Below, one piece after another: positions 2,171 through 13,033 of a stretch of DNA of 13,245 nt; position 1 is the stretch's first letter, and every line of letters begins with the position of its first letter. The stretch lies in contig JANOQV010000161.1 in NCBI GenBank assembly GCA_031414955.1, forward strand, positions 1 to 13,245. Direction: 5' to 3'. This DNA is from Pedosphaera sp. GTDB lineage: Bacteria > Verrucomicrobiota > Verrucomicrobiia > Limisphaerales > SIBH01. The notes under the pieces are model-generated. The model was not told the origin of the DNA. It was given only the letters and a program-made list of their open reading frames with translations, and made no database searches. The position numbers were made by a program, and so were the translations under genes.

Positions 2171-2601
2171 AGCAAAGGAATTACGTCATTCTCGAACCTG
2201 AAGTCGCTGGCGGCGTCGGCCCCGGTACTGAGTACGACATGACGGTTTCACCGCCTCGCATCACACGCCTCAACTATGAGTTCGATGGCTGGCTGGGGGA
2301 TGATGTCCTGGAAAGTTTTCCGAGCTTCATCATCACTGAGCGCGGTCGGAAACTGCTTGAACAACTTGCTGCCACGGGAATGATCTTCGCAGATGTGCAA
2401 GTCAGCAAGTCCGACGAATTTCATGAACTGCACGGGGATAAAACCCTCCCGAAATTCTATTGGATGCAAGTCCACGGAAAGCTCGGGGCTGATGACATCG
2501 CGCTCGTGTCCGATGGACGACTTGCGGTGGATGCGGGTTTGTTTGCCCGTTTGAATTCTCTTTTGTGGACGCATTGTGATGTAGCACCGCTGAATAGTTA
2601 G
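2167..2601 (+). CDS. Putative cognate immunity protein (144 aa)
   Basis: ATGA start/stop overlap with the toxin gene at 2167-2170; small soluble protein. LEPEVAGG...YEFDGWLGDDVLESFPSFIITE reads like a conserved family, and the FIITE...LE...TG..F..V segment loosely resembles Imm11/DUF1629-type proteins. Function is inferred from position. Confidence 0.72.
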   Translation: MKQRNYVILEPEVAGGVGPGTEYDMTVSPPRITRLNYEFDGWLGDDVLESFPSFIITERGRKLLEQLAATGMIFADVQVSKSDEFHELHGDKTLPKFYWMQVHGKLGADDIALVSDGRLAVDAGLFARLNSLLWTHCDVAPLNS

Positions 2602-2606
2602 TCTCT

Positions 2607-2659
2607 GAAAAGGGGTCGTCACATTTGACATTGGCGGCACGGTCTGCGGGCTGCGGCAT
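2607..2659 (+). repeat. Degenerate copy of the transposase element left end
   Basis: AAAGGGGTC-GTCACAT-TTGACA...GCTGCGGCAT aligns with 3127-3182 (AAAGGGGTCAGTCAATGGTATTGACA...GCTGCGGCAT). The TTGACA-to-GCTGCGGCAT spacing is 19 nt versus 20 nt. Confidence 0.6.
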
Positions 2660-2753
2660 CGGGACTTTAATTCGACTGCGGATAACGCCGGGAGCATGAA
2701 GCACCGTCTTGGGACGGCGCGGCCTTCCCGGCTCAGGAAAAGGACAATCCACC

Positions 2754-3056
2754 ATGCAACTACACGACGGCCTCAGCCCCATGTTCAACGTCGGCGATCC
2801 CGCCACCCTGAAACAAATCGAACATTCCCACATCCGGTATTGGATGGAGGAAAAAGGCAGTCAGAAGGAGGCCGCACCCATCCTGGGCCTGAACCCCGGC
2901 TCACTCTCGCGCAAGATTGCCAAAGAGAATATCAAGTATATCAAGAACGCCCAGCGCAAGCCGGACCTGGACCCTCCCTCCACTCGCCAGCATGACGAAG
3001 CGGAACGGGGTCAGTTCCTAACTTCTACAACTTTTGGGAACGGGGTCAGTTCCTAA
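2754..3056 (+). CDS. Small Fis-type helix-turn-helix (HTH_8-like) protein, C-terminus formed by repeat DNA
   Basis: TLKQIEHSHIRYWMEEKGSQKEAAPILGLNPGSLSRKI matches the Fis/NtrC C-terminal HTH pattern (L..LE...I...L....AA..LG.....L.RK). ATG 2754 is preceded by AGGAAAAGGA at 2735-2744. The last ~17 codons and the stop come from the 35-bp tandem repeat. Confidence 0.62.
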   Translation: MQLHDGLSPMFNVGDPATLKQIEHSHIRYWMEEKGSQKEAAPILGLNPGSLSRKIAKENIKYIKNAQRKPDLDPPSTRQHDEAERGQFLTSTTFGNGVSS

Positions 3057-3071
3057 CTTCTACAACTTTTG
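3002..3071 (+). repeat. Perfect 35-bp tandem duplication (2 copies) containing the GGGGTCAGT end motif
   Basis: GGAACGGGGTCAGTTCCTAACTTCTACAACTTTTG at 3002-3036 and 3037-3071. GGAAC/GTTCC can pair, leaving GGGGTCA in the loop. Confidence 0.95.
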
Positions 3072-3108
3072 GGGTTGAAATTCTGCCAGCGAAGTCCAGC
3101 CTCCTTTC

Positions 3109-3126
3109 ATGGCCCGCAAGCTCCGG
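3109..3126 (+). pseudogene. 5' stub (MARKLR) of an older paralogous Y1 transposase gene, interrupted by the intact element; continues at 4180
   Basis: ATG GCC CGC AAG CTC CGG = MARKLR, the same peptide as the start of 3181..4116 but with different codons. It is preceded by its own GGGGTCAGT motif (3042-3050) and TTGAAA-16nt-CAGCCT (3075-3102). Joined to 4180 onward it reads MARKLRLEAEAAL. Confidence 0.7.
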
Positions 3127-3146
3127 AAAGGGGTCAGTCAATGGTA

Positions 3147-3175
3147 TTGACACATTGCCAGGCGGCTCACACGCT
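3147..3175 (+). promoter_or_regulatory. Putative sigma70-type promoter in the left end, likely giving a leaderless transposase mRNA
   Basis: TTGACA (3147-3152), 17-nt spacer, CACGCT (3170-3175), ATG at 3181; no Shine-Dalgarno sequence. Confidence 0.5.
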
Positions 3176-3180
3176 GCGGC

Positions 3181-4116
3181 ATGGCTCGCAAATTGCGCGT
3201 GGAATATCCGGGGGCGATCTATCACGTCCTGAATCGCGGGGATCGGCGGGAGGACATCTTCAAGGACGATCCGGACCGGCAGCGTTTCCTGGCCACGCTG
3301 GGCGAGGCCTGCGCCAAGACCTCCTGGCAGGTGCTGGCCTTCTGTCTCCTGCCCAATCATTTTCATCTCGTGGTCGAGACGCCCCAGGCCAACCTGGTGG
3401 CGGGCATGAAGTGGCTGCTGGGCACCTACACCAGCCGCTTCAACCGCCGGCACAAACTCTTCGGGCATCTGTTCAGCGGACGCTACAAGTCGCTCGTGGT
3501 GGACGGGAGCGGCGACGGTTATTTGAAAACGGTCTGCGATTACGTGCATCTCAATCCGGTGCGGGCCCGCCTGCTCGCGCCCGCCGAACCGCTCCAGACC
3601 TATCCGTGGAGCAGTTACCCGCTCTATTTACAGGCTCCGGCACGCCGTCCGGAGTGGCTGCGGGTGGACCGTTTGCTCGGCGAATGGGGCGTGGCGGCGG
3701 AGAGCGCGTCCGGCCGGCGGCGGTTCGCGGCGGAGATGGAAGCCCGGAGGCAGGGTGAGGCGGATGAGGAATTCAAGCCGGTGCGGCGGGGCTGGTGTCT
3801 GGGCGGGGAAGAGTTTCGGCGCGGGTTGCTCGAGCAAATTGCCGGGCAACGGTGCGCGAGCCACTATGGGGAGGAACTGAAGGAATCAGCGGCGGCGCAG
3901 GCGCAGCGGTTGATTGACGAGGCGCTCGGGAAGAAAGGCTGGACCATGGAAGACTTGCAGGCGCGGCGCAAAGGGGACGCCTTCAAGGTGCGCCTGGCGG
4001 CCCAGTTGCGGGCGCGGACGACGGTGACGGTGGCGTGGATCGCCGAGCGCCTGTGCATGGGCACGCGCGGGCACCTCACGCACTTGCTCTACCGGCAAGG
4101 CCAGCGAGCAGGATGA
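3181..4116 (+). CDS. Y1 HUH transposase (IS200/IS605 superfamily, RAYT/TnpA-REP-like) with C-terminal HTH-like extension
   Basis: N-terminal MARKLRVEYPGAIYHVLNRG, HUH motif NHFHL, GHLFSGRYKS, catalytic Tyr in DYVHLNPVRA, YPWSSY motif, and helical C-terminal TVAWIAERLCMG. The ORF is intact at 311 aa. Confidence 0.93.
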   Translation: MARKLRVEYPGAIYHVLNRGDRREDIFKDDPDRQRFLATLGEACAKTSWQVLAFCLLPNHFHLVVETPQANLVAGMKWLLGTYTSRFNRRHKLFGHLFSGRYKSLVVDGSGDGYLKTVCDYVHLNPVRARLLAPAEPLQTYPWSSYPLYLQAPARRPEWLRVDRLLGEWGVAAESASGRRRFAAEMEARRQGEADEEFKPVRRGWCLGGEEFRRGLLEQIAGQRCASHYGEELKESAAAQAQRLIDEALGKKGWTMEDLQARRKGDAFKVRLAAQLRARTTVTVAWIAERLCMGTRGHLTHLLYRQGQRAG

Positions 4117-4143
4117 GCCGCAGGATATGCCAATACCATTGAC

Positions 4144-4175
4144 TGACCCCTTCTTGACCCCTTCTTGACCCCTTT
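4144..4175 (+). repeat. 11-bp tandem repeat (x3) of the right-end motif
   Basis: TGACCCCTTCT (4144-4154), TGACCCCTTCT (4155-4165), TGACCCCTTT (4166-4175). Confidence 0.93.
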
Positions 4176-4222
4176 CCGGTTGGAGGCGGAAGCGGCCCTT
4201 GGGCCTTGTCCTAATCACCAAA

Positions 4223-4300
4223 GGATTGGAAAGGACCGGAGCGCGCCGGGGATGATGGTTTGGAAGTGGGGTGTTCTCGCGCGCAGCGTCCTTTCCATCC
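4223..4300. repeat. Long imperfect hairpin/inverted repeat
   Basis: GGAT(T)GGAAAGGAC (4223-4236) pairs with GTCCTTTCCATCC (4288-4300). Inner GCGCGC (4241-4246) pairs with GCGCGC (4279-4284), with further G-U pairing possible. Confidence 0.6.
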
Positions 4301-4303
4301 GGG

Positions 4304-4537
4304 GTTGAACCCGCCCGACGTCGAAGTCACGTTGGAGATTCCAGCCGGGACCGGTGTGCCTCCCCAAGCGACGAGGCTGCCGTCCTTGGGCAGCGCGAGT
4401 GATTGCGGTCCTCCGGCGGCGAGGGCGGTGACGTTCGAAAGTCCACTCGGAACATTCGTTGGTCCGCTGTTGTTGTTGCCCCACGCGATCACGGTTCCAT
4501 TGCTTTCCAGCAAAGCCATATGGTCGCTTGCGCAACC
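4304..4537 (-). pseudogene. RCC1/BLIP-II beta-propeller repeat gene remnant (~2 repeats)
   Basis: SDHMALLESNGTVIAWGNNNSGPTNVPSGLSNVTALAAGGPQSLALPKDGSLVAWG...ISNVTSTSGGF matches the RCC1-repeat consensus (H.LAL..DG.V.AWG.N..GQ..VP....V..IAAG) with decayed residues. It is too short for a propeller, and there is an in-frame stop at 4559-4561 upstream. Confidence 0.75.
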
Positions 4538-4578
4538 TCGGCCCGAGGCCGGGTCGGGTCACGCTCTGACTTCTGGGC

Positions 4579-7500
4579 CTACGGCGAGAGTGGCGTGACC
4601 ACGCGGTAGTAGCGCTCGGGTGGGCCGGGCGGCGCGACCACGCTGTTGAACTGCATGGTCCGCACGAGCGAGGCCGGGAAGATGTTGGTCAGGTTGATCC
4701 AGGGTGCCACCGAGAGATCTGCCCGGCCTTGCAAGGTGTAGGCACGGTTGGTCTGCGCGACGAACTGCAACTGCGTGGTGTTGGTGGCCGAGAGGACCAG
4801 CTTGAGCAGGCTGAACTCATTCGTCGGGTTGGTCCCGGCCAGAAATTCATCCCGGTTGATCATCCCGTCGCCGTCGGAGTCGAGCAACGCATTGGCCGGG
4901 TCATTGGTGCTGCCGAGTCCGAAGTAACCCGACTCCCACAAATCTCCCACGCCATCCTGATCGGCGTCCGTGAGCAGAACCTGGGTGACGGTGGAACTGT
5001 TCACATTGCCGGCGGCGTTGGCCACCACGATGCGCACGCTGGTGTAGCCGATCTGCACGTTGGGGAGGATGAACAGGCCCGTGGAGTTGGTCAACATGCC
5101 CACGCCGTTGGTCAGGAGGCGGAAGGTGAGGGGGAGAAACGGATGGATGGGTCCGGCCGCGACGAAATAGATCGCCGTCTGTCCCGGCAGCACGAATTGG
5201 GAAACCGGCTGGTTGGAAATGCCCGGCCGGACCAGGACGGTGAAGGCCACGGAGGTCGAGGCCGTCCCGTAGGCGTTGGTTACGGTGAATCCGTAGAGGC
5301 CGCTCTGGGCCAGCACCAGGTTGGTCATGGTGAACGACTGGTTGGTGGCGCCGGGGATGTTCACGTTGTTGAACCGCCACTGGTGGCGCAGCGGCGGAGT
5401 CCCCGCCAGGCTCACGGTGAAGGTGACGTTCGAGCCGGCGTTGGTCGAGTAGGTGGCGGGCGGCGCGGTGAGAACTAGCGGCGGCTCCACGATGGAGACC
5501 TGGGCCACGGCGCTGAAGGCCGGGCCGCCGGCATTGCGCACATAGACATCGTAGGCGCCGGAATCATCCACGCGCAGATAATCGAGGAAGAGCCACGAGT
5601 TGGTCTGGCCGGAAAGCTCGACGCCGTTGAAACGCCATTGCCAGGACAGCGGGCCGCTGCCGGCGGCGGCGGCTTGCAGCAACAGATCGGTGCTGACCAG
5701 CACGTTGGCGCTCGCTGGTGACTGGGTGATGGCGGGCGGAGACACGGCGGCGACGGCATTGGTGCGGCCGGCGGTGGGCGCGGCGGCCAGCCAGTTGGCG
5801 GCATCGTGGCCGTAGTTTCCGGCCACGCGGCGCTGGAGTGAAAGCCCGCCGCCATCGACCGCCCCGGAGGGCCACGGCGCGGAGTCGCGATAGGATACTT
5901 TATCCACGCGCACCTGGGGCACGAACGCGCCGTCGGGGAGGTCGGGCTTGAAGAGGTCAATGGTTTCGCCGCCGTTGTCGAGCTGGCCCGAGTAGGGGCC
6001 GAACACGGGCACAGCAGGGGAGACACCGTACTGGGCGCGGAACGACGTGAGCGCGGCCACCTCGACCACGGGATCGAAATTCACCACGAGCAAAAAGCCG
6101 TCCGCCGCCAGCGTGGTGGAGGGCGGGAAGGCAAAGCTCACGCCGTCGCCCAGCCGCCAGGTGTTGGTCGGCCGCGCCGGATCAAACAGGGCGACGTTCG
6201 TCGAGGCGAGGTTGCGCAACTCGATGAACTCGGTCGCGCCCGGCAGGCCGTCGGGCGGGTGGTACATGATCTCGTGGATCACCACCGGGCCGACCAGCGG
6301 CCTGGCATTGGTGTCGCCGAAGGTGCGCGCCGCCTGAGCCGTGAACTCATTTTCGCCACCCACCTCAAAGCGCCCGAATGAAACGTCCGCGGCCGCCGCG
6401 CCGAACTTCACGCGGGTGCGAAAGCCAGTCAGGTTGGTGGAGATGTCCGCCGCCGAGAGCCACAGCTCGCCGCCGCGCGCCCGGTCGAGGACGAACGCGT
6501 TTGGTCCGGTGTTGATCTGTGCTTCGTAGATCAGCTTGAAGCCGCCGCCGGAAACCACCGGCGTGTCGTCCGCGAAGCGGAATTTCTTCAACGCCGCCGG
6601 ATTGTCGCTCAGGAACCATCCGCCCACGGCGACGTCCGCGCCGGTGAGGTTGCGCAGTTCGATCGCGTCTTCAAGCGGCAGGTTGGCGTGGGTCAGGATT
6701 TCGTTGAGGGCCACGTCGGTGATCAGGCGGTAGTTCGATTCCGCCGGCGTGGCCGAGCCGGGCAAGCTGAAGACATTGGTCGAACCATCGGGCACGCGGC
6801 CTTGCGACACGCCGGGCGGTTGCGCGCCAAACGCGACGGTGTCGAGAATGGTGCTGCCGTTGGTGGCGTAGAGGCGGATGCTCTCGCCGAGGGCATCGAG
6901 ATCGAAGTTCACATGATTGCGGCCCTCCTCGGGCTGCGCGTCCGCCAGCCACTGCACGAAGCCGCCGGCGGCGATGAAGCTCAAGGGCGCGGCGCGGAAC
7001 TCGTTCGTGCCCGAGGTGGTGGGGTCGTCCGTGAACACCAGCCCGGCGAGATCGATTGGGAGGTTGGTGGTGTTGAATAACTCGAACCAGTCGGGACCGT
7101 CGGCGGAATTCGCCATCCACACGTTGATGCGCAACGAGGTGGCGGCGCCGAGCGCGGCGAATGCGCCATTGGGCGCTCCGGGTGTCGGGGTCGTGAGCAG
7201 TCGCCAGATGGGAGCGGCGACGTTTGGACCAATGGAGCGGTTGGTGATCTGGAATCCGTACTCGATGGCATTCACCACCTGCCCGGCGGGGTTGAAGAGA
7301 TACACGCCGCCGCTTTCGCCCGCGAGCGACTGGCCCAGATTGTAGAAGCTGGAATTGGTCGAGACCGGCGTGCCGTCGTCGCACCACACCAGCGTGTAGC
7401 CGAGCGCGGGCGTGGCGGCGTCGGGCGGAAAAATCCACCGGCCCGCGTCCGATAGATCGGTGCCCAGGCTGTAACCGGCGAGCGAGACGGGCCCGCCGTT

Positions 7501-10500
7501 GCTGTTGCACAGCTCGATGAAATCCGCAACGCGCCCCGCGCCGTTCGTCACCGCCGAGACATTGCGCGCCAGTACTTCGTTCAGCACCGGCCCGGTGTAG
7601 GTGACAGCATAATTGGTGGTCCCAGGGCTGGCCGATCCGGGGAAATTCATGATGGTGCCGGAGCCATCAGGCAGACGGCCACGCGTCAGTCCCTCGGACT
7701 GGGCGGCGTAGCTCAGTCGGTTCACCTCCGTGGCGGTGATGTCGTAGAGCACGATGACTCCACCCGTGGCCGGCAGCTTGAAGTCGAGGTGATCGGGGCC
7801 GACGCCTTCATCCGCGAAGAACTGGCTGAACCCAAACGGCGCGATGAAAGAGAGCGAGGTGATCTGATGCACGGCGGACGTGTGGGAGAGGAACGTGCCG
7901 CGCAAGGCGACGGGCAGGGCGGAGTTGTTGAACAATTCGATCCAGTCCGGCAACCCGGCGGCGGGGTTGGCCAGGAATTCATTGAGGGAAAGGTTCGCGG
8001 CGTCGCCCACGGTGGCGGCGATGTTCGCGGCGTTGGTCGTCGGCGTGTTCAAGACCCACCCAGCGCCAAGGCGGCCGACGGAGTAATCCGCAAGTTGCAG
8101 CCCGAAGCTGAGGGCGTCGGCCAGGTTGGTGTCGGCGTCGTAGAGATGGACGTTGTCGCCGTTGCGACCGAAGGCGAAACCGCTGTGCAGTCCGGGCGTG
8201 GTGTTGGTCAGGGCGTCGCACCAGACGGTGAGGAAGCCGTTGGCGTCGATGATCGTGCCCGGCGGGAAGACGAACTTCCGCGGATCGCCGTCATCGGTCA
8301 GGCTCCAACCGGCGAGACTGAGGGGCGCGCCGCTGGTGTTGGCCAGCTCCACGTAGTCTGGGAAAGTGCCGGCGTGGTTGACGGCACTGAAGTTATCCGC
8401 CAGCACTTCGTTGAGGCGCACATGGCCGGAGGCCGGGGCCGCGTTGGCCGTGCCCGGGGTTCCGCCGGGAGTGGTGCTCGCGCGCCAGTTCGCCGGATCA
8501 TCGGGATCGCCAGCTGGGTTGATGTTCTCCAGGGAGAATCCACCGCCATCCGCCGCGCCCGGCCATCCGCCCGCGTCGTCGTAATCGAGCGAGGTGATGA
8601 TGTTGCCCGCCGCATCCTTGAGCACCAGGCGTTCGCCACCGTTGTTCAAACCGCCCGCGAAGTAGCCCGCCACCGACACGCCGGAATAGAGCGCCGCGAA
8701 GGCTCCCGGACTCAAATCAGAGGCGAGCACCAGCCGCGCGCCACCGGCCAGGGTGCTGCCCACCGGAAACGTGAAGGTGACGCCCTCGAAGTACAGACCG
8801 CTGAGATTCAACGGAGTGGAGCCGACGTTTTGCAGCTCAATGAACTCGTAGGCGCTCGAGTCGGCCGGGTTGTAGTTGATCTCGGTGATGCGCAAAGGCA
8901 CCCCGCGCGAGGCCACGGAGAAAGTGGCCTCGGTGAGCGCGCTCCAGTTGCCCGCCGTGAGGGTGCGGGCTTTGATCAGGGTGTCCTGATTCAGCACGAG
9001 GGGCGCCGCATAGGCCACGGCGCTGTTCGACACTGCGCCGGTGAACATCACCCGCGGGTCCGCGCCGTCGGTGGTGAAATAAATCGTCCCGCCGCCGCTG
9101 GCCGTCATGGTGAGGCTGAAGCCGGGCGGCACATTGCTGCCATGCTGGCTGAAGGCCGGCGCGGTGTCGGAGCCATACAAGCCGTAAGTGATGAACTGGT
9201 TCAGGAGCGGCGCGCGCCGGTTCGGGATGAAGGTGTTCAGGATGGTCTGGGACAACGTCGGGATCACGCCGAGCAGTTCCGTGCGCAACTGGATGAAGCG
9301 ATTGGCAATGTTGGTGTCGGTCATCGCGCCGCCGTTGAAAAAATGTTTTTGCACGCGATCCGCCCAGAGCAGCCGGAACTCCGCGCTGTTGCGCAGGCGG
9401 GTGTAGAAGACGGGAATCTCGGCCGTGCCGTTCAGGAGCGGGCTGTTCACGCCGGCAGGGTTGATGCCCCGGGCGATGAAGCTGTCCGAGGTCGCGGTGC
9501 TCCCGTCGAATTCACCGAACGCACCTTCGGCGTCCCAGACGTAGAAGCGAAATTTTCCGCCCGGCGCGCGCTCGCGGGCCGCGCGCCAGTTGTTGTGCGG
9601 CCAGTCCCAGGTGCAGCCGTAGGTGTTCACGATCAGGTAGTCGATGAAGTTGACCACATCCATGCGGCGCAGCACCTCGGTGAAGATCGCCGGCTGCGTC
9701 ACATCCTGGCCGCTGACGTAGGTGCGCAGGCTGTTCCATTCCACCGCGTCGCCGCCCTGCACCGCGCTGCCCACGGTGAGGATGTCCCAACTGTTGCTCC
9801 CGCCGTGCCAGTTCTGGAGGAAGCCTTCCTCCACGCGCTCGGTGGGATTGTAGTAGCCCTTGTACACGCCATTGATGAAGAAGTTGACCCAGGTGCCGTG
9901 GCAGGCGACCTGGCCCATGTCGGCGGACAACTGGCGGGCCAGCTCGTCGCGCAGGAAGGGATTCGAGATGTCGTTGTGCCCGGCCCGCAGGACGATCTGA
10001 TCGAAGTCCTGCACCGCCCCGTCCGAGAAGACCGGATACTTCAGCCGGTCGGAGCTGTAATCACCGCGGAAGTAGAGGCGGTAGGAAATCTTGTCCGTGG
10101 CCGCGTAGCGCGGGCGCGTGTAATCGCTACCCTGGACCCTCATGCCGGAGTCGATTTGAAACCCGGAGTTGTCGCCGGGGTGGATGTATTCCACGGACAT
10201 GGGCCGCTCCCAAGCGAGGCCGTTCGAGGTCGTGTTGTGATACTCGCCGGGGACGGCGGGGACAGAGGGCACCCACGGATTGGCCGGCGGGCCGCTGCCG
10301 CCGTTCATGCCGATGATGCCGGTCGGGCCGATCATGTTGTTGCTCAAGGTCTGGATGGAAAGAATGGGCAGCGAGCGAATGGCCGCTGACTGATTGAAGT
10401 AGAACGAGTGTGATTCCACCAGGGCAGGCAGTTCGTTGGTCTTGAAGGCCGCCGCCCGCACCATGAACGTGCTGTTCACCGCCAGCGGCAAGGAGAACGT

Positions 10501-12315
10501 CAGACCGTTCACCAGCGTCGGCTCGCTGCCATTGGTCGAGTAACGGATGACCGCGCCGCGCGTGGCGCAACTCAGGATGAGATTGAACGGCTGACTGAAA
10601 TGACCGCGCGCGGTGCTGAAGTGAACGGGTTCCACGACGCCGGTGATGGTGCTCACCCCGTTGGCCGTGCCGGGCGTGGGCGTGGCGAAGTAGCGCAGGG
10701 CACCGCCGGTCTCCGGGCCGTAAGAGTGGTCGTTGCGCTGCACCGGATACTTGGGCAAGAAGCCGGCGGCGAACTGGCGCGGTGAATCGGGCGTGAACAG
10801 CCCGAGAAAATCCCCCGTGATGGCCAGTTTGAAATTGGTGTGCAACCGGTTCGTGCCCGTGGGCGCGGTGCGATCCTTGGCCGAGGCGAAGACCACCAGA
10901 TACGCGCCGGGGGCCAAAACGCGTTGCGGGAAAACCCAGCGCCCCGGCTCATCCGCCTCATCGCTCAGGGACCAGCCGAGCAAATCCACCGCGTTCGTGC
11001 CGGCGTTGTACAGTTCGATCCAGTCCTGTTCTTCGCCGTCCTCGTCGCGCAATCCGCTTTGATTCGAGGCGTTGATCTCGTTGATGACCACGCCGTAGGT
11101 GTTGGCGTCCGGATCGACGGTGTAGCTCCACGGATCAGCGAGCAAGGCGTTCGGGCCGGCGGCGAAATCCGTGATGCCGTGACCGGGTTGCCACTGGACC
11201 GAGACTGGACCGTTGGGTTGGAGAGCGAATTGAAAAACGAAAACCGCGCCGGGCTGCACGACGACATTCGTGGCCGGCTGACCGTTTACCAAGAGGTCCG
11301 CCGCGTTCACGCCGTTGACCGCTTCGCTGAAGGTCACGGTGATTTGCCCCAGCGCCTGCACCACGGCGCTGGCGGCCGGGAAGCGCGCCGCGACCATCGG
11401 CGGCACCACGTCCAGATGCGTGTAGCTCCAGGTCGCGCCGGGTTGGTTGTCGTCGAAGGCGTTGGGCGGCGCCGCCAAATCCGTGATGCCGTGTCCGACC
11501 ACCCAGGTGATCGGCACGTTGCCATACGGCGCGGACGGAAAAGTGAAGGTGTAAGTGTCACCGCTCCCGCTCAGGCCGGTGGCTCCGATGCCGTGGACGT
11601 TGAGATCGTCGGCGACCAGACCCGTGATCGGCTCGCTGAACTGGATGGTGATCTCGGTGAGATTCGTCAACACGCTGTTCGGCGCGGGCGTAACGCTGAC
11701 GATGGTGGGCGGGTTCGTGTCCACGAGGATCGCGTCGAGCGAGGCGTCGAACACGATGTCGCTGCTGGCGGTCGTGGTGTTGAAGACCTGCACGGCCAGC
11801 GTGTTCGTGCCCAGCACCAGATAGCCGCCCGGGGAGGCCACGGTGTAGAACTGAAATGAGACCGGCTCCGTGGCCCCCGTGGCCAGGTTGGTGAACGTCA
11901 CCGTGGTGCCCGGCCCGCCGGGCATGTTGGTGCGCGCGATCTCCGTGCCGTTGACCCAGGCCACGAAACCGTCGTCCACCTTCGCGCCCAGTTGGAGCGC
12001 GGCGATTTGTCCGAGGTTGGTGATCACGAAGGTGCGGCGCAGGAAGAAGCAACCGTACTGGCTCACCATGTCGTTCAAGTCGGTGCCGTAGCCGTAGCCC
12101 TCACCGTAGGTGAAAGGTGCCGGCGTGTTGGTGAAGGCCGCGTCATTGAAGCCATTCGTCCGCCAGGCCGTGATGTCCGGCAGGGTGACTTCCGTGCGGC
12201 CTTTGAAGAGCGCCCAGGAGGCATTGGTCGAGACGAGAGGGACGAGTTCGGCGGACTGAAGCAGTACACACGAAGCCGACAAGAGTGCCAGGAAGGCGAC
12301 GATTGCATGGGTCAT
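4579..12315 (-). CDS. Giant secreted CotH-family kinase / lamin-tail-domain protein (~2578 aa)
   Basis: Likely start MTHAIVAFLALLSASCVLLQSA (signal-peptide-like) at 12315. Approximate order: jelly-roll-like module (DDGFVAWVNGTEIAR); two Ig-like domains; LTD1 (VVINEINASN...DWIELYN, ~11090-10660); CHB_HEX_C/Fn3-associated (IRYSTNGSEPT); CotH kinase (~10370-9190; RVQG, KISYRLYF, LRDEL, FINGVYKGYY..TE, DWPHNN at ~9600, WDAE at ~9530); second Fn3-associated domain (IYFTTDGADPR); LTD2-8 (ITEINYNP, LNEVLADN, LNEFLANP, LNEVLARN, INVWMANS, LNEILTHA, IHEIMYHP); three Ig domains; DxDxDG Ca-binding motifs; C-terminal ...W....YYRV module. Confidence 0.9.
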   Translation of the reverse strand: MTHAIVAFLALLSASCVLLQSAELVPLVSTNASWALFKGRTEVTLPDITAWRTNGFNDAAFTNTPAPFTYGEGYGYGTDLNDMVSQYGCFFLRRTFVITNLGQIAALQLGAKVDDGFVAWVNGTEIARTNMPGGPGTTVTFTNLATGATEPVSFQFYTVASPGGYLVLGTNTLAVQVFNTTTASSDIVFDASLDAILVDTNPPTIVSVTPAPNSVLTNLTEITIQFSEPITGLVADDLNVHGIGATGLSGSGDTYTFTFPSAPYGNVPITWVVGHGITDLAAPPNAFDDNQPGATWSYTHLDVVPPMVAARFPAASAVVQALGQITVTFSEAVNGVNAADLLVNGQPATNVVVQPGAVFVFQFALQPNGPVSVQWQPGHGITDFAAGPNALLADPWSYTVDPDANTYGVVINEINASNQSGLRDEDGEEQDWIELYNAGTNAVDLLGWSLSDEADEPGRWVFPQRVLAPGAYLVVFASAKDRTAPTGTNRLHTNFKLAITGDFLGLFTPDSPRQFAAGFLPKYPVQRNDHSYGPETGGALRYFATPTPGTANGVSTITGVVEPVHFSTARGHFSQPFNLILSCATRGAVIRYSTNGSEPTLVNGLTFSLPLAVNSTFMVRAAAFKTNELPALVESHSFYFNQSAAIRSLPILSIQTLSNNMIGPTGIIGMNGGSGPPANPWVPSVPAVPGEYHNTTSNGLAWERPMSVEYIHPGDNSGFQIDSGMRVQGSDYTRPRYAATDKISYRLYFRGDYSSDRLKYPVFSDGAVQDFDQIVLRAGHNDISNPFLRDELARQLSADMGQVACHGTWVNFFINGVYKGYYNPTERVEEGFLQNWHGGSNSWDILTVGSAVQGGDAVEWNSLRTYVSGQDVTQPAIFTEVLRRMDVVNFIDYLIVNTYGCTWDWPHNNWRAARERAPGGKFRFYVWDAEGAFGEFDGSTATSDSFIARGINPAGVNSPLLNGTAEIPVFYTRLRNSAEFRLLWADRVQKHFFNGGAMTDTNIANRFIQLRTELLGVIPTLSQTILNTFIPNRRAPLLNQFITYGLYGSDTAPAFSQHGSNVPPGFSLTMTASGGGTIYFTTDGADPRVMFTGAVSNSAVAYAAPLVLNQDTLIKARTLTAGNWSALTEATFSVASRGVPLRITEINYNPADSSAYEFIELQNVGSTPLNLSGLYFEGVTFTFPVGSTLAGGARLVLASDLSPGAFAALYSGVSVAGYFAGGLNNGGERLVLKDAAGNIITSLDYDDAGGWPGAADGGGFSLENINPAGDPDDPANWRASTTPGGTPGTANAAPASGHVRLNEVLADNFSAVNHAGTFPDYVELANTSGAPLSLAGWSLTDDGDPRKFVFPPGTIIDANGFLTVWCDALTNTTPGLHSGFAFGRNGDNVHLYDADTNLADALSFGLQLADYSVGRLGAGWVLNTPTTNAANIAATVGDAANLSLNEFLANPAAGLPDWIELFNNSALPVALRGTFLSHTSAVHQITSLSFIAPFGFSQFFADEGVGPDHLDFKLPATGGVIVLYDITATEVNRLSYAAQSEGLTRGRLPDGSGTIMNFPGSASPGTTNYAVTYTGPVLNEVLARNVSAVTNGAGRVADFIELCNSNGGPVSLAGYSLGTDLSDAGRWIFPPDAATPALGYTLVWCDDGTPVSTNSSFYNLGQSLAGESGGVYLFNPAGQVVNAIEYGFQITNRSIGPNVAAPIWRLLTTPTPGAPNGAFAALGAATSLRINVWMANSADGPDWFELFNTTNLPIDLAGLVFTDDPTTSGTNEFRAAPLSFIAAGGFVQWLADAQPEEGRNHVNFDLDALGESIRLYATNGSTILDTVAFGAQPPGVSQGRVPDGSTNVFSLPGSATPAESNYRLITDVALNEILTHANLPLEDAIELRNLTGADVAVGGWFLSDNPAALKKFRFADDTPVVSGGGFKLIYEAQINTGPNAFVLDRARGGELWLSAADISTNLTGFRTRVKFGAAAADVSFGRFEVGGENEFTAQAARTFGDTNARPLVGPVVIHEIMYHPPDGLPGATEFIELRNLASTNVALFDPARPTNTWRLGDGVSFAFPPSTTLAADGFLLVVNFDPVVEVAALTSFRAQYGVSPAVPVFGPYSGQLDNGGETIDLFKPDLPDGAFVPQVRVDKVSYRDSAPWPSGAVDGGGLSLQRRVAGNYGHDAANWLAAAPTAGRTNAVAAVSPPAITQSPASANVLVSTDLLLQAAAAGSGPLSWQWRFNGVELSGQTNSWLFLDYLRVDDSGAYDVYVRNAGGPAFSAVAQVSIVEPPLVLTAPPATYSTNAGSNVTFTVSLAGTPPLRHQWRFNNVNIPGATNQSFTMTNLVLAQSGLYGFTVTNAYGTASTSVAFTVLVRPGISNQPVSQFVLPGQTAIYFVAAGPIHPFLPLTFRLLTNGVGMLTNSTGLFILPNVQIGYTSVRIVVANAAGNVNSSTVTQVLLTDADQDGVGDLWESGYFGLGSTNDPANALLDSDGDGMINRDEFLAGTNPTNEFSLLKLVLSATNTTQLQFVAQTNRAYTLQGRADLSVAPWINLTNIFPASLVRTMQFNSVVAPPGPPERYYRVVTPLSP

Positions 12316-12322
12316 GGGTAAG

Positions 12323-12331
12323 ACCCTAGCA
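12323..12331 (-). promoter_or_regulatory. Putative extended -10 element (TGcTAGGGT) 7 nt upstream of the ATG at 12315
   Basis: The minus strand reads TGCTAGGGT-CTTACCC-ATG with no SD, which fits a leaderless start. Confidence 0.4.
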
Positions 12332-12402
12332 ATTGTTCCGGGCGGTGGCTTCAAAAAAATGACGTCCGAAGGAACAGGGATCAACTCGACGCCCGCACCA
12401 CT

Positions 12403-12513
12403 CGGAGCGCGGGCTTTCCAGCCCGCAGCGGTGTGGAAAGACGAAAAGCGCTGGCGAGAGCGGAAGCAGTCAGCCGATTGAGCGTTGCTGCGGACTGGAA
12501 AGTCCGCGCTCCG
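12403..12513. repeat. REPIN-like inverted pair of GGAG-type REP sequences
   Basis: CGGAGCGCGGGCTTTCCAGCCCGCAGC (12403-12429) versus the reverse complement of 12487-12513, CGGAGCGCGGACTTTCCAGTCCGCAGC: 25/27 identical, 57-nt spacer. Each copy is a GGAG tetranucleotide followed by a 7-bp stem with a TTCC loop. Confidence 0.85.
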
Positions 12514-12599
12514 GTGCTGGTGTCGAATCGCGCCCAGGAACACACCCACGCGCACGGCGCGGAATGCCCCCCCGCCACCTGTGGCGTCGGCCTTTGGCC

Positions 12600-13033
12600 T
12601 CACTTCACCCGCAGCACCCACACCACTTCGTAATAGGCAGGCAGGCTCGACGCCGGATCACTGATGTAATTCCCTGGAGGGAACACCGTCACATCTGCGC
12701 CCTGCGGCACTGTCCCGCCATTGATGTTCAACCCCAGCCCGTGCCGCCGCTGGCGTTCGCGCCGCGCAGAAAACACGGCACGCCGCCCTGTGCGCCGTTC
12801 AAGTCCGGCGCGTTCAAACCATTCAACGGCGACTCCGCATCGTTGATCGCCTGGCCATTGCACTCGACCCAGGTGCCGGGCAGGGCCGGGACGTTGGGCC
12901 GGCTTTTCAAATAGCCCGTCACGCCCCCGATCGGATGGACCGCGTCGAGCAGCGCCTTGAGGCTGGTGAGTTGCTGGCGCATCTCGCCCGCGTCGAGCGG
13001 CGAGTTATCAGCCGGCTTGGTTGGATCAAACAT
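12600..13033 (-). pseudogene. Frameshifted phage tail-collar-like (microcystin-dependent-protein-like) gene
   Basis: 13033..12728 encodes PIGGV..Y...LPGTWVECNGQ...PDLNG...FLRG...GGTG, a tail-collar pattern, then stops. The expected C-terminus (LPAYYEVVWVLRVK*) lies in the -1 frame ending at 12600. Confidence 0.7.

Follow-up and report, generated by a model that had tools for sequence, protein, structure and literature searches.

The window analysed here is the whole of a 13,245-nucleotide (nt) contig of Pedosphaera sp. (JANOQV010000161.1), which belongs to a 6.5-Mb genome assembled in 313 contigs with a contamination of 5.8%. In what follows this contig is C161, C numbers being contigs of the source genome, G numbers related genomes, L numbers copies of the family and X numbers public sequencing runs. 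At positions 3127-4152 (or 3127-4179, if two extra copies of the end motif are counted) the window very probably carries an intact TIRtron, an element in which a TIRYT gene with a HUH/Y1 nuclease domain lies between terminal inverted repeats, and this element stands directly 3' of what is left of a paralogous TIRtron, its truncated left end. The intact element and its ends are called B-type, those of the paralog A-type. The features of the locus are the following.

3002..3036, plus strand: one of two identical 35-nt tandem units of the A-type end repeat, the other being 3037-3071
3037..3126, plus strand: truncated left end of the paralogous A-type TIRtron, with the end repeat GGGGTCAGTTCCTAACTTCTACAACTT, a leader, an ATG at 3109 and six codons (MARKLR)
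3127..3155, plus strand: left terminal inverted repeat, B-type, with the conserved outer AAAGGGGTCAGT followed by an element-specific inner part that holds TTGACA (3147-3152)
3181..4116, plus strand: TIRYT gene, 311 amino acids, with an N-terminal HUH/Y1 nuclease domain and a predicted C-terminal helix-turn-helix (HTH) resembling DnaA domain IV (about residues 235-311)
4125..4152, plus strand: right terminal inverted repeat, beginning 9 nt past the stop codon
4155..4179, plus strand: two additional copies of the outer end motif with an 11-nt period (TGACCCCTTCT, TGACCCCTTT), then CCGG
4180..4209: spacer of 30 nt, unique, in which no similarity to the starts of Y1 genes was detected
4210..4316: dispersed repeat, about 106 nt long (CCTAATCACCAAAGGATTGGAAAGGACC...), which contains a long conserved hairpin, is unrelated to the element that it adjoins and is not part of it

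The protein encoded at 3181-4116 matched the Pfam family Y1_Tnp (PF01797) with an E-value of 2.7e-13. The best NCBIfam model was REP_Tyr_transpos, which describes the tyrosine transposases associated with repetitive extragenic palindromes (REP), with a score of 51.8 bits, below the cutoff of 80; the model transpos_IS200 reached 19.8 bits, versus a cutoff of 55. The motifs found were W49-Q50, NHFH at residues 59-62, YVHLNP at 121-126, which includes Y121, and WSS at 143-145 (W143-S144-S145), and NHFH, WQ, YVHLNP and SS were kept across 28 aligned copies of the family. An AlphaFold model of the protein, built on an alignment of 28 sequences, had a predicted local distance difference test score (pLDDT) of 88.6, and its top PDB match in Foldseek was the TnpA-REP protein of E. 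coli (4er8_A, E 9e-7, TMt 0.74), followed by the ISDra2 and IS608 transposases. When the C-terminal 80 residues were modelled alone (pLDDT 82.7) and compared by a structure search independent of Foldseek, the top four chains were all DnaA domain IV, with 72-78 of the 80 residues aligned and Z scores in a range that the tool itself calls middling (8btg_A, Z 8.1 with 77 residues aligned; 3pvp_A, 1j1v_A and 1l8q_A, each Z 7.1; next chain, 5.6). The sequence profile of the family gave zero matches against PDB chains at E up to 10.

The ends of the element are well defined. The perfect inverted repeat of 22 nt reported in the first-pass annotation is real, and forms the core (3128-3149 / 4131-4152) of longer arms, 3128-3155 and 4125-4152, in which 26 of 28 nt (93%) are complementary. 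The sequence GGGGTCAG at 3130-3137, with its complement at 4143-4150, fits the motif GGGGWSAS. We collected 37 full-length or nearly full-length copies, 33 of which were examined for inverted repeats: clear ones, opening with (A)AAGGGGTCAGT, were present in 25 of the 33 full-length copies, from 14 genomes. In the 20 copies with well anchored ends, the outer 9 nt were 0.86 identical between elements; at positions 10-20, the identity was 0.88 between the two ends of one element versus 0.48 between elements. Each end is split into a tip common to the family and an inner half that belongs to the single element. No conserved hairpin was found in 38 arms, for which the alifold consensus was empty and the minimum free energy was −1.87, versus −1.91 for shuffled sequences; the 6-bp hairpin GTCAAT-GGT-ATTGAC is particular to the window copy. 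The two arms also differ in the pentamer TTGAC, which was found in 20 of 25 left arms versus 5 of 25 right arms, the distance to the ATG being 28-31 nt for 16 of these left arms and 50-55 nt for the other four. The TTGACA of the window is likely to be a −35 box lying inside the left end and followed by a very short leader, as judged from the sequence.

In the window the end motif is stacked on both sides. At the right end TGACCCC occurs three times with an 11-nt period, at 4144, 4155 and 4166, and on the left side GGGGTCA occurs at 3007, 3042 and 3130, the first two copies being inside the 35-nt tandem duplication. Partial duplications of the ends, varied in length, were also noticed at other copies, namely in C215 and C61 of the source genome, at the left end of L005 and at the right end of L034, where there are three partial copies. 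A further, solitary motif resembling a left end, AAAAGGGGTCGTCACATTTGACA, lies at 2608-2630, with a spacing shorter than in full elements; it sits 124 nt 5' of a small open reading frame (ORF) at 2754-3056 that encodes a Fis-type HTH_8 domain (E 2e-5), and the final codons and the stop of this ORF fall inside the A-type end repeat.

It has been reported by Di Nocera, De Gregorio & Rocco in 2013 (PMC3733652) that genes resembling those of the REP-associated tyrosine transposases (RAYT) may lie between inverted repeats; they named these units TIRtrons and the proteins TIRYT, and described a common end motif, GGGGWSAS, and end repeats that occur singly, as dimers and in clusters. Most TIRYTs were later placed by Quentin et al. 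2018 (PMC6006769) in subclass 2.1 of the TnpA-Y1 proteins, which has the key motifs NH[YF]H, W[EQ], Y[IV]HLNP and SS (their Table 1) and a C-terminal HTH like Bac_DnaA_C, HTH_23 or HTH_28; this subclass equals RAYT group 1 of Bertels et al. 2017 (PMC5581495). The window element agrees with these descriptions in that its HUH/Tyr gene is RAYT-like and has terminal inverted repeats, not REPs, on its two sides; these repeats carry the motif GGGGWSAS, here GGGGTCAG, and are separated from the gene by a short and roughly constant distance. All four motifs of subclass 2.1 (NHFH, WQ, YVHLNP and SS) are present, and the genome has solo, paired and clustered end repeats. A C-terminal HTH with DnaA-C likeness is predicted from the model, with a middling structural match. 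It is a further copy of the known TIRtron class, and nothing that defines the class differs. The first-pass annotation was correct in describing a Y1 gene bounded by terminal inverted repeats, and not by subterminal hairpins, placed directly after six codons of a paralog; its proposal of a new class of mobile element does not hold, the TIRtron/TIRYT class having been known since 2013.

Three other systems were compared with the window element. The REPtrons (RAYT/TnpA-REP; YafM of E. coli, PDB 4ER8) offer the best structural match for the nuclease domain and share the tyrosine motif Y---NP and inverted flanking sequences. However, the window ends have no GTAG-tagged hairpins or conserved stem-loop, the protein is twice as long, with a predicted extra HTH domain, the gene is multi-copy, and the end motif is not overabundant: in the 6.5-Mb genome GGGGTCAG was found 132 times versus 424 expected, and AAAGGGGTCA 10 times versus 9.1 expected. 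With the IS200/IS605 elements (IS608, ISDra2) the window element has in common the HUH/Y1 fold, the lack of a target-site duplication and the layout of a small single-gene element; by contrast, those elements carry the class 1 motifs DH[VI]H and Y[IV]ENQ, instead of NHFH and YVHLNP, and subterminal hairpins on one strand, instead of true terminal inverted repeats without conserved hairpins. The insertion sequences of the DDE type are similar in their terminal inverted repeats, which are some 25-28 nt long and have a tip conserved in the family and an inner part specific to the element, in the transposase promoter in the left end, which is here predicted, and in derivatives resembling miniature inverted-repeat transposable elements, but the window element has neither a DDE/RNase H fold nor a target-site duplication.

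What precedes the element is the start of a second TIRtron. The stretch 3109-3126 (ATGGCCCGCAAGCTCCGG) encodes MARKLR and is homologous to the beginning of a paralogous gene, as had been supposed. In a BLAST comparison within the source genome, window 3038-3125 matched C99:16127-16214 with 83% identity (E 2e-18), and the matched segment belongs to a paralogous copy with one in-frame TGA, of which it comprises the end repeat, the leader and the start codon ATG. A three-way alignment of the window with the C99 copy and a copy from G016 showed that the homology takes in end repeat, leader and ATG and continues through ATGGCCCGCAAGCTCCG. It ends at 3126, where the AAAGGGGTCAGT of the intact element exactly begins, so that the earlier description of the left junction as codon 6 of a paralogous gene is correct.

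The first-pass annotation had inferred that a DDE-like Y1 element, with a target-site duplication of 4-5 bp (CCGG or TCCGG), had inserted cleanly into codon 6 of a full paralog whose continuation survives downstream. CCGG does occur on both sides (3123-3126 and 4176-4179), the stub upstream does represent the start of a paralog, and, with the element removed, the two codons that follow are L-E, in keeping with the [VIL]-E found in the family at positions 7-8. As a target-site duplication, however, CCGG is not supported. Allowing the boundary to slide up to 6 nt into the repeat, we found a flanking direct repeat of at least 3 nt in 0 of 24 related copies (8 had none, 11 had 1 nt and 5 had 2 nt); in cross-paired controls such repeats occurred in 11% of the pairs. 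Since CCGG is its own reverse complement, it cannot distinguish a direct from an inverted repeat, and together with the end motif it forms a perfect inverted repeat of 14 nt, CCGGAAAGGGGTCA / TGACCCCTTTCCGG. In several copies the two sides stay complementary beyond AAAGGGG, and this extension is an inverted repeat rather than a direct one (GT...AC, TG...CA, T...A). AA(A)GGGGTC has GG or CGG before it at several other termini as well, in C61, C215, C146, C69 and at the right end of the C99 copy, as read from a genome-wide motif list and not formally counted. Moreover, the outermost copy of the right motif plus CCG is identical to the motif found 3' of the right end of the C99 paralog (TGACCCCTTTCCG). 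A copy in C162 interrupts an IS4-like transposase gene, whose intact homologs in two same-genus genomes read ...DSRTGA-YCQARARLP, and the sequence of the interrupted gene is ...DSRTGA-[element]-(K)SCQRAARWP, in which no bases are duplicated compared with the intact homologs; since its right flank is decayed, this case is supporting evidence only.

The claimed continuation of the gene on the 3' side of the element was compared, as 4180-4210, 4180-4230 and 4180-4270, with codons 7-36 of the 37 family copies, and it scored no better than shuffled sequences (9, 9 and 11 observed versus null means of 9.0, 9.6 and 10.7). The 30-nt spacer scored 9 versus a null of 9.0 ± 1.3; real codons 7-17 score 25. 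The string GTCCT-AATC (4208-4216), read earlier as the resumption of the gene, overlaps the first bases of the dispersed repeat that starts at 4210. In the source genome this repeat has 8 aligned copies at 92-99%, each with different flanks, besides further fragments, and copies at 85-90% occur in two same-genus genomes; in four metagenome runs its word depth was about 280-440 versus about 3-13 for the adjacent element (bins 3084-4171). The remaining ~900 nt of the A-type gene are absent downstream of the element. With DNA that is not Y1-like on the 3' side and a dispersed repeat from 4210, the empty site cannot be reconstructed in the way proposed; the clean, duplicating insertion into a full paralog is highly improbable, and we consider it largely refuted.

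Since the junctions come from a metagenome-assembled genome, the composite might also be a chimera in which the assembly joined two repeat families. The window is a whole contig of 13 kb from the fragmented and partly contaminated assembly described above, and the 35-nt tandem repeat breaks all public contigs, with a word depth 3-6 times that of its flanks, so that the number of units is given here only as assembled. On the other hand, contigs of the runs X1 (3044-3449 and 3420-4239) and X2 (3044-3399 and 3664-4239) span both junctions of the B-type element with zero differences, and the gene and the right junction are also held by two runs of a second study. X1 and X2 are possibly the source samples of the genome assembly, and their support for the junctions is then not independent; in X3 and X4 the interval 2700-3147 was uncovered. 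No joint bypassing the element was seen in the public runs; their sole joint runs from 3518 to 3777 in one contig (side 29) and probably comes from a different organism. Taking these data together, we regard an assembly chimera as barely credible.

A protein search for the family in 41 related genomes gave matches in 32 of them, with up to 49 in one genome. The closest relative of the window gene, with 84% amino acid identity, is in G001, where its flanks are unrelated to those of the window. In G016 an internal-deletion derivative of about 380 nt, in which codons 1-29 are fused to the C-terminal HTH region, occurs at 5 places with the same junction and 87-92% identity, in addition to partial copies. 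In G009 there is a gene-less B-type mini copy of about 105 nt made of both ends, and no full gene was found in this genome (94% complete) with the protein query. In the source genome itself, C131 and C137 contain solo B-type right ends, and C36 contains a copy with an internal deletion. The deletion derivatives, the gene-less mini copy and the copy within the IS4-like transposase gene support mobility of the family. The derivative copies and fragments of G016 are clustered, with six places in its contig C5 (19.9-41.3 kb) and three in C245 (4.4-9.3 kb), which suggests either local hopping or a repeat-rich accessory region.

A different explanation is that these are domesticated, essentially immobile RAYT-like genes, with repeats that are regulatory or REP-like, copies that are ancient paralogs, and an adjacency of A-type stub and B-type gene that arose by ordinary recombination or deletion. 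It is in line with the divergence of the copies, which are 0.58-0.85 identical within a genome versus 0.80-0.88 for the same lineages between genomes, and with the low copy number and low within-genome identity reported for class 2 (PMC6006769). In the same direction, L004 (G021:C32) and L035 (G037:C285), two copies whose genomes belong to different families, share a homologous gene at the right (TTCAAATACCTG.CCGA.GGCAAAGGCGCG), relative to which the element ends are about 65 nt apart; the two may go back to one old insertion that was followed by a deletion, or this neighbourhood may be a preferred one. Immobility is hard to reconcile, however, with one internal-deletion derivative at 5 places of G016, with a mini copy in G009 that has no gene and both ends, with a copy that interrupts an IS4-like transposase gene of which two same-genus genomes have intact versions, and with close relatives that lie in unrelated contexts in the source genome and in G001. 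Moreover, at least 12 matches among those listed start no more than 14 nt from a contig start (e.g., G037:C214, C113, C11, C31 and C15); repeats that break short-read assemblies behave in this way, and so the true copy numbers may exceed our counts. On balance, we judge that essentially immobile genes are unlikely to explain the family.

Several observations weigh against an intact, mobile TIRtron whose protein recognises its own ends. Neither the relatives nor the public runs yielded an empty site, and the left flank had no counterpart in 11 same-genus genomes; likewise, flank searches within the source genome gave no paralogous empty sites for the C99, C162 and window copies. The full copies that one genome contains are old: the highest nucleotide identity between them is 0.69 in the source genome and 0.67-0.85 in five others; these ages do not point to recent transposition, and a domesticated role is possible. 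The match to DnaA domain IV is middling, at Z 7-8, a range for which the tool warns of a possibly common helical arrangement; Foldseek on the C-terminal model gave no match at E 0.001 or better; and Pfam, searched at E up to 1 with 28 members, gave no HTH family beyond a weak DUF6471 in 9 members and none at threshold. According to PMC6006769, the end motif is unlike DnaA boxes. Extra end motifs are weakly enriched, being near an end in 7 of 21 copies versus 3 of 21 in control windows, and in one of the 7 (L002) the extra motif is probably the element's own end motif. A scan of 2950-4350 with the sigma-70 consensus gave no promoter-like site, and because it found no canonical −10 box in the window copy, the −35 box is retained as a prediction. 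Finally, the literature on TIRYTs, in the texts available to us, contains no biochemical or genetic evidence for any TIRYT; a search on the name TIRYT retrieved PMC3733652 and PMC6006769 only, and the words "target site" and "duplication" are absent from the main text of the former.

How the B-type element came to lie behind the A-type stub can be pictured in more than one way. It would have ended up inside an A-type copy, or inside a deletion remnant of one, the rest of A being already missing or lost later. One route would start with B entering a full A in the same orientation; the right ends of the two would then share the terminal motif as direct repeats, and the remainder of A would be lost if the DNA between them were deleted. 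Such a deletion would leave the outer flank of A (TGACCCCTTTCCG), which matches the sequence seen. Judging from the sequence alone, the most likely origin is either this deletion after insertion into a full A or an insertion into an already deleted A remnant, and the two fit equally well; as no empty site was found, we infer the order of events. A preference for inserting into relatives, which the first-pass annotation had put forward, is not borne out: the N-terminal fragments are mostly internal-deletion derivatives or decayed copies and not nested insertions, and among 20 such fragments from relatives, in which internal deletions and decay were seen, there was no second clean nesting.

The rest of the window contains other coding sequences. 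The minus strand carries at 4579-12621 a giant ORF of 2680 amino acids with seven lamin-tail domains and CotH kinase-like, Ig-like, Fn3-associated and CHB_HEX_C domains. At 2-2170 an ORF of 722 amino acids runs off the contig start and is overlapped by one of 144 amino acids at 2167-2601; neither had a Pfam or NCBIfam match. The C-terminus of the former contains HHAVEQ, and the layout of the two recalls, as an impression only and by analogy, a toxin-immunity pair. An Rfam scan of 2600-4700 on both strands, at E up to 1, gave zero matches, and no RNA run is listed among the public runs that hold the window sequence.

As for the mechanism, the N-terminal HUH/Tyr domain would act on single strands, cutting them at the ends of the element and rejoining them, by analogy with TnpA-REP and the IS608/ISDra2 transposases. 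The C-terminal HTH, if its modelled likeness to DnaA domain IV is correct, would bind the duplex end motif AAAGGGGTCAGT, sometimes iterated with its 11-nt period, and bring the enzyme to both ends, and the specificity of each lineage would come from the element-specific inner half of its repeat. Like other HUH/Y1 elements, the TIRtron would move without duplicating its target site. A more far-reaching picture is, as a whole, tentative and rather unlikely: TIRtrons would be active, duplication-free Y1 transposons, whose DnaA-IV-like HTH binds an 11-nt duplex motif that can be iterated like iterons, whose HUH/Tyr domain cuts single strands, perhaps on a panhandle of the complementary ends, and whose new copies prefer the ends of resident copies. 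If this were true, the three left and three right end motifs of the window would be the fossil of successive end-targeted events.

The TIRtron class has been in print since 2013. As far as the printed record available to us goes, the 24 duplication-free copies, the element-specific inner halves, the left-end TTGACA at a fixed distance from the ATG, the deletion derivatives and mini copies and the stacked end motifs may be additions to it. The window and its relatives provide a test set for the question how, or whether, a TIRYT moves its element, with an intact gene between near-perfect ends, mini derivatives of natural origin, 24 copies that lack a target-site duplication, ends split into a family-wide tip and an element-specific inner half, and a predicted duplex-binding domain fused to a single-strand nuclease, and they would be useful for studying how HUH/Y1 enzymes may act on inverted-repeat ends.

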